A DNA stretch of 64,000 nucleotides from Nitrospirota bacterium (GTDB lineage: Bacteria; Nitrospirota; UBA9217), in NCBI GenBank assembly GCA_963741205.1, contig CAVUHW010000020.1:293744-357743 (forward strand), read 5' to 3'. The notes below the pieces were generated by a model. The model was not told the origin of the DNA. It saw nothing but the letters and a program-made list of their open reading frames with translations, and did no database searches. This document shows positions 50,657 to 61,779 of this stretch, piece by piece (within the stretch, counting starts at the first letter, position 1; every line of letters begins with the position of its first letter). Position numbers and translations under genes: made by a program.

Positions 50657-51230
50657 TCACTGCACTTCCCGATATCGGAAGCAATCGACCAGGTGATCGT
50701 TAACCATACCCGCCGCCTGCATGAAGGCATAACAGATGGTCGAGCCCGCGAATTTGAACCCCCGCTTCCTGAGGTCCTTGCTCATTGCGTCCGATTCAGC
50801 GGTCGTTGCCGGGATCTCGGAAAGGCGCCGAAACTGGTGTTGAACTGGCTTATTACCGATAAATCGCCAGATATAGGCGTCGAAGGAACCGAACTCCTTC
50901 TGTAATTCAAGGAACAACCTTGCGTTTGCAATAGTTGATTCTATCTTCAAACGATTGCGAATGATGCCGTCGTCCTTGAGAAGACGCTGCACATCCTTTC
51001 CCATTATATCGCGCTATGGTCTTCGGATCGAAGCCGTGAAAAGCCTTGCGATAGTTTTCCCGCTTCCGGAGCACTGTAGACCATGAAAGGCCTGCCTGCG
51101 CGCCGTCAAGGACGATGAATTCGAACAGTTTCCGGTCATCGTGAAGCGGCACGCCCCATTCCTCATCATGATAGGCAATCATGAGCGGATCATCAGACGG
51201 CCAGGAACATCGTTTTACGCCCTTCTGCAT
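50657..51230 (-). CDS. tag: DNA-3-methyladenine glycosylase I (frameshift near 51003)
   Basis: RCSW, YHDEEWG, AQAGLSW, IIRNRLKI, GMVNDHLVDC. Confidence 0.92.
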
Positions 51231-51302
51231 GCCGGTCTCCGTATTTCCGCTCGCCCCATTCTTTCTTCCTTGCTTTCAAGGTCGCTGTCACCGGGGACCG
51301 AT

Positions 51303-52418
51303 TCAGACCCTGTACTCCCGCAGGGTCTTCGTTGCGCGTGCCTTCTTTTTTTTCTCCGGCAGGGAGAGCGCAAACTGTTTTCCCGCCGCAATCCATTTCT
51401 CCAATGCGGCCTGCCCTCTCCATCCGGTTTCCTTCACCATGAGCCAACCGCTCATCGGTTTGCCGGTGATGTTAAAAGGTTCTACATTCCTGTCCCGCAG
51501 ACTCCGCTCCCCCTGCTCCTTGCCGACGCGCACGATCAGAAAATCCTTGTGGATGCCGAAGGCCATATTGCTCTTGGGGATTCTAGGTTTGGCGCTCGGT
51601 ATGTCGACTGAGATCCGAAGACGAACACCCGCGGGTGAACACGAGCTGCGGCGGAGCGCGAAATCAGCCCACAGCAGCAACGCGGCACCGGGCGACGCGC
51701 GAGCAAAGCGAAGACCCGACCGCCGCAAGCCGAACCCCGGGCACGCAGGCCCGGACGCCGGAGAAGTAGCACCGAGCGTGCCGGCAGCGGGACACCCGGC
51801 ACCAGGGCAACGGAGAGACCCGAAGACAGCCGCGCAAAGCCGAGAAGCCGCCGCCAAACGCGCGCCCAGAGGAGAAGGAGACAACCACCCGGACGCCGGG
51901 TAAGGGAGGCCGCGGAACCCGACCGCGGAGCGAACAAGCGCCAGACGACCGACGGCAAGCACAGCGGGCCAAAGGCGCGCGCGAGCCCAGTAGGAACGAA
52001 CGAACAGCCGCGGTAACAGGGACGCGCCCAAAGCAGGGCGACAGCAGTCGTCAGTACTCGTAGGAGCCTGACTGGTTGCGCCGTTTTATGAGAGGCACAC
52101 AAAGAGAAAGGCGTGAGACCGCGAACGGGAGAGCTGACAACGGCGGCGTAGCGGTCAGCGACAGCGATGACCGGATAGTACGGAAAACGCTCTCGGCACT
52201 GGCGTGAGATAAGCGTTGGCAACCACATCCGCGAGGGTAGTAGCTGCTCCGTTGTCGGGTAGCAACGGAATTTTATGCCGCTTGAAATCGCCACATCTCT
52301 AATATAGGTGAGAATTCAAAAGGTAGCAGACGCCGCCGAACATTTTCTTTTTTTCCACATTCTGCCAGCGCTTCACCGCGCTGTCAATCTTCTCTTCCAG
52401 CTTCGTATTGTAGGACAT
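51303..52418 (-). pseudogene. TfoX/Sxy N-terminal-domain gene interrupted by ~740-bp insert
   Basis: MSYNTKLEEKI...KKMFGGVCYLL (52418-52317) joins KSNMAFGIHKDFLIVRVG...GKPMSGW (51575-51303). Confidence 0.85.
51576..52316 (-). mobile_element. adenine-depleted partial copy of a tnpB element
   Basis: collinear with tnpB from 61058 to ~60080; near-identical first ~68 nt; only 6 T in plus-strand 51661-52020. Confidence 0.8.
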
Positions 52419-59574: not shown

Positions 59575-61225
59575 ATGAACTACCCGCCACTGAACCAATT
59601 ACATGGTTGCAGTGGGGGTTTCACGGATCATAGAAGCGTGCAGTCCCTGGGTAGTTCCCAAGTCCTGTCTTATCTGCTTCTCCCCGCGCGTAACTTCGGC
59701 CGGTTCCCGGCCTAGTGTTTCCTTCTTCCTTAACCGCATGGCGCGTTCCTGATGCTTTACGGTAATTTCGCCAGATACAAGCATTTCTATGCCGCGCTTC
59801 TTGATAACGAGAGACGCATTGGTATCGGCGTTTTCCGTAAAGCCACAGCTCTGGCAATCGAACACCGCCTGTGACTGGCGATTGTCCGGGTGAGTGTGCG
59901 AACACTTCGAACACTCCTGTGAGGTGCCGTGCGGCGGTATGGCGATAACGAGCTTGTTGCGTCGCGAGGCTTTGTACGTCGTAAAGAGTTTTACCTTGCC
60001 CCACGCTGATTCGAGTATGGACTTGTTGAGACCGGCCTTGGCCTTTGCCCCGTTCGGAATATACGTCCCGCCGGCTGACTTCTTAGGTTTTGGCGCTCTG
60101 GTCATGTTCTTGACCTTGAGGTCCTCGAAGACGAACACCTCCGCGGGTGAATCCACGAGCTTGCGGCTGGCCTTATGCGCGAAATCATGCCTCACATTGG
60201 CAGCATACGCCTGGCACCGGGCTGATTTCGCAACTGATTGCCTAAATCGGCCGGATCCTTTGATCCGCCTCGCCATTTGCCTCTGATATCTCTTCTTCCG
60301 GGCATCCTTTTTTGCCAGTCGCTCTTTTTGGATGCCGGAGAAGTCATGCACCGAGCCGTCGCTCGTTGCCAGCGGGATTTTCACCCCTCGGTCCATTCCC
60401 AAGGCAACGGTATTAAGACTCTCTGATGACATGCCGCCGTAAAGCTCGAGAAGTTCCTGCTCGCTCATAACTGTGCCTTGCTTCTCATAGGAGAACGAGA
60501 CATACCATTTCCCGGACTCCCGGGAAATGGTGATGGCCGCCGGAACCTCGTACTCATCATGAGCCTTGAACTTAAGTTCGCCCAGATCGACCGACTTTGT
60601 GCCAAGCATCAGCCGGTGCTCATATATTGTTTTGTCCTGCCGCTGTTTTGAGCCTCCAGTAGGAACGAACCTGAATAGCTCGCTGGTAATCCAGACGGAC
60701 TGCCGCCCCGCCTTCTTTTTATAAGCAGGGCGATCAGACAGTCCCGTCAGGTACCTCTTATAGGATCCCATGAACCTGGTTGCGCCGTTTCTTAGCACCT
60801 GTGACGGCACATCGTATAAAAACGGAGTGAGTTCCTTGTCCTTGAACTGGGAGTACTGCTGATCGATCGGCGGCTGTAGTCCGGTTAGCGACAGTGAGTG
60901 GTTTCGGAATGTTCGGAAATAACGCTCCTCGGCAACCTTGGCGTTGTAGATAAACCGCTGGCAGCCCATCCACTGCGCGAGAATATCGGACTGCTCCGTT
61001 GTCGGGTAGCAACGGAATTTTATGCCGCTTGAAAACGCCATATTTCTAATATAGGTGATGACGCATGAAAGCGCAACTAAATAAAACGTTGCCGCCCTCA
61101 GCCTATATTGTGAGGCTAAATATCGTTTTCCGTAGCACAAGCATGGCACAAATCCACGCCCAAATCAGTCCGCTTGACCCCCTCCTGGCGCTTCGCCCCT
61201 AGCAGGGGGAATGCGCGGACTTTAG
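59575..61225 (-). mobile_element. IS200/IS605-family (IS1341-like) tnpB-only element; left end uncertain
   Basis: right-end hairpin GAAACCCCCACTG...CAGTGGCGGGTAGTTCA(T); no tnpA; candidate left hairpins at 61095-61116 and 61168-61220. Confidence 0.75.
59599..61041 (-). CDS. tnpB: RNA-guided endonuclease TnpB
   Basis: KFRCYPTTEQ HTH, GMDRG, FEDLKV, CSKC/CQSC, NADTNA. Confidence 0.95.
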   Translation of the reverse strand: MAFSSGIKFRCYPTTEQSDILAQWMGCQRFIYNAKVAEERYFRTFRNHSLSLTGLQPPIDQQYSQFKDKELTPFLYDVPSQVLRNGATRFMGSYKRYLTGLSDRPAYKKKAGRQSVWITSELFRFVPTGGSKQRQDKTIYEHRLMLGTKSVDLGELKFKAHDEYEVPAAITISRESGKWYVSFSYEKQGTVMSEQELLELYGGMSSESLNTVALGMDRGVKIPLATSDGSVHDFSGIQKERLAKKDARKKRYQRQMARRIKGSGRFRQSVAKSARCQAYAANVRHDFAHKASRKLVDSPAEVFVFEDLKVKNMTRAPKPKKSAGGTYIPNGAKAKAGLNKSILESAWGKVKLFTTYKASRRNKLVIAIPPHGTSQECSKCSHTHPDNRQSQAVFDCQSCGFTENADTNASLVIKKRGIEMLVSGEITVKHQERAMRLRKKETLGREPAEVTRGEKQIRQDLGTTQGLHASMIRETPTATM

Positions 61226-61779
61226 TTTAAAAGGAGGATAATTACGGGGTGTCAAAAAAGGATTCACTTATAAGCAAATCATAGGCATGTTCGCAGATCA
61301 TAGGCATGTTCATAGCTTCAAAGATGCTCGTGAGCATAGGACCATCGATAGTGTACATCTGAATAAAATCGCCAACCGGCTTCCGAAACTGATTTTAGGC
61401 CGTTGCAAACTACAAGTGGTTTATTTCAATATTTTTCTTAAGTTCGATTCCACAGTAGTAGGTGCTGTCGATGACCGTGATGGCGCCGAAGAACAACAAA
61501 TTCCATTTGTAACTTTCGTCGAGTCCTGCTTCCAGTACTTGATACCGCTGCGGTTTTCTAATCACCAACAGTACAAATCGAATAGTGGGATTTCAGAAAG
61601 CCTCATTTTCTGCTTTATCTTCCGGGAAAATAGCTTTATACTTTTGCTGTTAGACTGCCCATAATCGATGGGATTCCTCGGCAAAGAATGTTGCGTCGCA
61701 TTATCGTGATGCCAGCACATACAACATCCCGGTCATGAATCGGTTGCCGGGATGACACCATAAGATAGGAAATCAGCCT

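Follow-up and report, generated by a model that had tools for sequence, protein, structure and literature searches.

The mobile elements closest to the locus analysed here are the tnpB-only (IS1341-like) members of the IS200/IS605 family, to which ISDra2, with its TTGAT target, also belongs. The closest base-specific process is that of diversity-generating retroelements, which substitute at adenines and do not delete them. The third comparison is with errors of long-read (metagenome) consensus building and polishing. In its accessible text, one report on such errors names indels in homopolymers and repeats as the hardest to correct and states that polishers can introduce errors themselves (PMC11232133), and the accessible text of another gives Nanopore reads, Flye assembly and a single Medaka round for some named relatives (PMC12313526).

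The window, i.e., the whole 64,000-nt stretch of DNA that was analysed, comes from a genome bin of 4.27 Mb in 50 contigs that is 84% complete. In this window, a block of 741 nt (51576..52316, minus strand; 51574-52314 fits equally well, a 2-nt ambiguity) separates codons 34 and 35 of a 124-aa TfoX_N gene. The 5′ part of the gene (52317..52418, minus strand; codons 1-34, ending in ...MFGGVCYLL) aligns to residues 1-34, and the 3′ part (51303..51575, minus strand; codons 35-124 and the stop codon, starting with KSNMAFGIH...) to residues 35-123, of a 126-aa TfoX_N protein from a same-genus relative, L009, that matches Pfam PF04993 with an E value of 2e-12. The original prediction that ca. 741 nt interrupt a TfoX of ca. 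124 aa is thus borne out. Taken alone, the chimeric 242-aa ORF of the window gives a weak TfoX_N match (0.0057) that lies below the cut-off. The two halves of tfoX are adjacent (query 670-677 joins 1421-1426) in nine of the 40 relatives searched, and the four of these nine that were checked have intact tfoX ORFs of 123-126 aa. The T-less core of the block had no match in any of the 40 relatives.

The block is collinear with the tnpB element located ca. 8 kb away, at window positions ca. 60075-61063, over ca. 1 kb (998 template positions), and can be described as a corrupted internal fragment of this tnpB insertion sequence (IS). The expected collinearity with ca. 980 nt of tnpB was therefore found, but it concerns only an internal part of the 1,655-bp IS: ca. 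165 nt on the left-end (tnpB 5′) side and ca. 500 nt on the right-end side are missing. As it has neither of the IS ends and no open tnpB frame, the block is not an intact member of the IS.

Alignment with the best-scoring sibling IS copy revealed that the differences are overwhelmingly deletions: 268 of the 998 template positions are deleted, while 11 bases are inserted and 29 substituted. On the plus strand, the loss is hierarchical and strand-specific, T > C > A > G, with 179 of 266 T (67%), 66 of 276 C (24%), 16 of 205 A (8%) and 7 of 251 G (3%) deleted from the block. In terms of the minus strand, this is the predicted loss of adenines and of some guanines, and plus-strand A and G are almost untouched. 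The two example strings and the start-codon variant on which the prediction was based are present in the sequence as quoted. The loss of C consists mainly of the shortening of CC to C (7 of 17 CC runs are shortened), and single C residues are kept in 24 of 25 cases.

The loss of T is graded inward from both junctions of the block. Retention is ca. 60% in the first ca. 45 nt and ca. 2% in the core (51620..52040, plus strand), where near-total T loss is accompanied by frequent CC-to-C shortening. About half of T residues are kept in a patchy zone (52041..52243, plus strand), without clustering of the retained ones (runs test, P 0.60), and nearly all are kept in the last 70 nt. The core contains 8 T in 421 nt, and the stretch 51661-52020 contains 6 T in 360 nt, exactly as originally counted; T makes up 22.8% of the whole window (binomial P = 6e-36 for the depletion). 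Between positions 51654 and 51999, a base is present at just 15 of the 140 positions at which the template has T. A scan of the 64,000-nt window showed that the block is the sole stretch in which any base falls below 5% per 200 nt. Next to this depleted region lie 68 intact nucleotides (52244..52311, minus strand), comprising the tnpB start in its GTG-start variant and 14 nt upstream.

When T was removed and homopolymers were compressed, the block was 87-90% identical to 14 IS copies, and two copy-versus-copy controls treated in the same way gave 91-94%; T loss and run shortening thus explain most of the difference. The intact 68 nt recur exactly in three other IS copies (at C20:167935, C34:55891 and C47:17334), in agreement with the suggestion that a sibling copy served as the source. 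Among the copies compared, none stands out as the single source of the block.

The source element itself was characterized using its full-length copy in the window, a tnpB-only IS of 1,655 bp (59575..61230, minus strand) whose boundaries were derived from 13 full-length copies. Its tnpB occupies positions 59599-61044 of the minus strand, and the ORF 59599-61149 (minus strand) matches HTH_OrfB_IS605, OrfB_IS605 and Cas12f1-like_TNB (Pfam E values 2.3e-10, 7.2e-12 and 4.3e-18, respectively), i.e., it codes for a TnpB/OrfB protein with the HTH, OrfB_IS605 (RuvC-like) and zinc-finger TNB domains of the IS200/IS605 family. The bin holds 13 full-length and ca. 8 partial copies that share 90-97% identity. 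DNA folding revealed subterminal hairpins, and not long inverted repeats, at both IS ends (-22.4 and -20.3 kcal/mol, z scores of -3.1 and -5.1). A Y1 (HUH) TnpA (PF01797), expected in cis or in trans, is absent from inside the 1,655-bp copies and is encoded next to diverged tnpB copies with the same left-end terminus as the IS (C34:18326-18688 and C26:373741-374103).

The site of insertion is seen directly in two sister contigs that are 99% identical, one filled (C28:13837-15497) and the other empty (C29:6637-6648). In the filled contig, the IS immediately adjoins a TTCAA (TTGAA on the tnpB strand) that is already there in the empty one, and the target site is not duplicated. Of 11 readable left-end flanks, six are TTCAA, two are TTCAT and three are others. 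The filled and empty sites show that the IS is polymorphic among the co-assembled strains and was recently mobile, as the original prediction of recent, population-polymorphic transposition had it. The source element is an ordinary IS200/IS605-type member that is polymorphic among the strains of the bin. For the reference copy of the window, no empty site was found in 14 same-genus genomes.

Several other copies of the IS have peculiarities of their own. The copy at C20:164896-168166 is interrupted by a piece of ca. 1.6 kb (between C20:166138 and 167764) that does not belong to the IS and may be a nested insertion. Two internal fragments, C43:30653-31701 and C43:95338-96311, have a near-identical start (equivalent to window positions ca. 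59754-59756) and may be parts of some other composite repeat. The copies C20:220727-222343 and C34:55739-57350 lack 30 and 35 single bases, respectively, at scattered positions when compared with the reference copy; all four bases are affected, and some of these deletions cluster near the right end. They probably stem from a locally poor consensus and not from decay.

The block in tfoX is located directly 5′ of a TTCAA (52315..52319, plus strand; TTGAA on the tnpB strand) that is the native target motif of the IS and belongs to tfoX, and its tnpB has the orientation expected for a real insertion. The empty site of tfoX reads GCTC / TTCAAAAGG. There are 75 TTCAA motifs per 64,000 positions of the plus strand, so that such placement is unlikely by chance (ca. 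0.1% per position and strand, or ca. 0.4% when the 2-nt ambiguity of the block boundaries is allowed for).

An environmental short-read contig (321 nt, depth 2) joins position 51573 directly to 52315, skipping the block. Its right arm differs at 5 positions and has a 3-nt insertion, and it may derive from a sister strain or from another sample. Matches to the window stretch came from only three soil-metagenome runs, all of one study, and covered a small share of it (0.07-0.09). Contigs from these runs do not cover 51671-52171, which is uninformative on absence because contigs drop rare variants. Contigs of depth 12 contain 52244-52311 flanked on either side by normal IS sequence with its T residues; since three further copies in the genome have these 68 nt as well, the contigs cannot be traced to the one in tfoX. 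A 51-nt string from the T-less core had no exact match in genome and metagenome contig collections, and the intact 68-nt end had none in the metagenome contig collection. Since these scans may omit the window's own record, their zeros are weak evidence against a real T-less tract.

The assembly was also scanned for other single-base-depleted tracts, a check that had been proposed along with the original prediction. No second base-stripped tract was identified in 4.27 Mb, and no base-specific loss was observed in 16 other IS copies of the genome. With a lower threshold (at most one occurrence of a base per 90 nt), T-poor tracts outnumbered A-poor ones; the T-poor stretches inspected were ordinary low-complexity coding linkers or membrane segments and not further hidden stripped tracts.

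Errors of another kind are present in the bin. At C37:17178-17922, a poly-T run of ca. 745 nt replaces a normal stretch of 782 nt that is kept in a near-duplicate (C20:4740-5521), with the left flanks 97% and the right flanks 86% identical; this run is a gross consensus artefact. At C28:39233-39547, there is a poly-G/C run of ca. 315 nt, made of ca. 305 G followed by 11 C. At exactly that point, the sister contig C46 is empty and C47 has a 1,163-nt toxin-antitoxin-like cassette encoding an RHH (CopG-like) protein and a PIN domain, which indicates that gross consensus failures coincide with strain indel heterogeneity. Both the poly-G and the poly-T run thus sit where sister contigs differ. Sets of near-duplicate contigs (C28/C29, C28/C46/C47 and C37/C20) are 93-99% identical, and the bin evidently mixes closely related strains. 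Contig C10 has a GC content of 61%, compared to ca. 55% for most contigs; it contains very GC-rich stretches and a cluster of four reverse-transcriptase matches (C10:116000-147300 and C10:79178-84134) and could be chimeric or of an origin foreign to the bin.

Taken together, the data make it very probable that consensus building or polishing mangled a genuine, canonical insertion of the IS that is probably carried by only part of the population. The original prediction favoured this reading, and it fits everything that could be tested (target, orientation, empty sites and errors in sister contigs). The block is almost certainly an assembly error and not a new kind of mutation; most likely, it is not real DNA and is a faithful image of no DNA molecule. 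On this reading, the multicopy tnpB-only IS would have inserted into tfoX as a normal 1.65-kb copy, at the TTGAA target that it commonly uses and probably in only some members of the population sampled; reads or strains would have disagreed on the insertion when the contig consensus was computed. The consensus or polishing step would then have called base versus gap at each position near its decision threshold, and base-specific thresholds of a likelihood-based or neural step could have led to base-specific loss, with an error model that removes T first, then C in runs, and keeps A and G. As an outcome, both IS ends would have been dropped entirely and, in the middle, almost every T would have become a gap, as would one of the two C in many CC pairs. 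In the poly-T and poly-G runs, this decoder seems to have failed as well, though in different ways. The specific software step behind the T loss is something that we infer, and a literature search retrieved no earlier report of deletion artefacts that are base-specific. An even mixture of reads with and without the IS would not fully account for the loss of its ends beside 68 perfect nucleotides.

The error could instead have arisen at the level of reads, if base calling had failed over a real IS insertion in one or a few long reads, with T never emitted, and thin coverage had let the failed read set the consensus. The poly-T and poly-G runs resemble a decoder stuck on one symbol, for which a base-caller is as possible as a polisher, and the scattered 1-nt deletions in the IS copies that start at C20:220727 and C34:55739 suggest thin or poor consensus. 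There is no reason, however, why a read-level glitch should begin and end within the insertion, show a gradient from either junction or lose both IS ends, and the poly-G run at a polymorphic indel site points to a step that saw several disagreeing reads. We therefore consider such an origin unlikely. Still less likely, and in our view improbable, is that there was no insertion at tfoX at all and that a piece of the IS was spliced in through a chimeric read or a mis-join and then corrupted. The presence of an internal IS fragment without either end, and of 68 well-preserved nucleotides common to three other copies, would agree with such a splice; the placement exactly 5′ of a native TTCAA in the correct orientation and the demonstrable mobility of the IS in the population argue against it.

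Finally, the block could be real A-less DNA, made when a polymerase copied an IS-derived single strand or transcript into tfoX at a TnpB/TnpA target and left out adenines and some guanines of the tnpB sense strand. The block is indeed part of the contig as deposited, the loss shows a striking specificity for base and strand, and the bases that remain are in register. If true, T-less DNA in cells would mean a base-specific deletional copying process without known precedent, and we know of no polymerase that copies in this way. However, there is no second case in the 4.27 Mb of the bin, in the other IS copies, in the 40 relatives or in the two contig collections; all 10 RVT_1 matches are on contigs C10, C12, C14 or C45, and contig C20 has none. 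The changes are deletions and not substitutions, the CC-to-C shortening is a typical signature of sequencing consensus, and the same assembly contains other impossible tracts (poly-T and poly-G). No independent evidence speaks for a new process of base-specific deletion, and we regard real A-less DNA as extremely improbable.

The main value of the result, with the block read as a consensus artefact, is a warning about quality: a public genome bin contains 741 nt of fabricated sequence as well as homopolymer runs hundreds of bases long. Because a T-less plus strand, and hence an A-less minus strand, cannot encode stop codons, the core of the block is stop-free on either strand, and gene callers emit spurious ORFs of 240-250 aa and a falsely chimeric TfoX. 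Over the block, the spurious ORFs (240-252 aa) are 51181-51903 (plus strand), 51303-52031 (minus strand) and 51536-52294 (minus strand), one of them being the false TfoX chimera. Such errors can be detected by a simple scan for tracts that are depleted of a single base or consist of a single base only. The biology is modest and ordinary: in a soil population of Nitrospirota-like bacteria, a tnpB-only IS200/IS605-type IS that targets TTGAA has been active recently and is polymorphic, and a tfoX-like gene is probably among its insertion sites.

Compared with the described systems, the tfoX block resembles targets of diversity-generating retroelements in that adenines on the sense strand of a sequence resembling a template are specifically changed. 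It differs in that the changes are deletions, contig C20 has no reverse transcriptase (RVT_1) and there is no pair of equal-length template and variable repeats at the block; the block is thus not a target of such a retroelement. The source element agrees with the tnpB-only members of the IS200/IS605 family in its TnpB domains, in its subterminal hairpins, in insertion beside a pentanucleotide without duplication and in the presence of a Y1 TnpA elsewhere in the genome, while the tfoX copy, lacking both ends and most T residues, is, as written, neither functional nor genuine. Relative to long-read consensus and polishing errors, the near-complete loss of a single base over ca. 420 nt goes beyond what the accessible texts of the papers found describe; the block has in common with such errors its confinement to a multicopy repeat at a site that is probably polymorphic in the population, the shortening of homopolymers (CC to C) and the company of other gross consensus failures in the same assembly.
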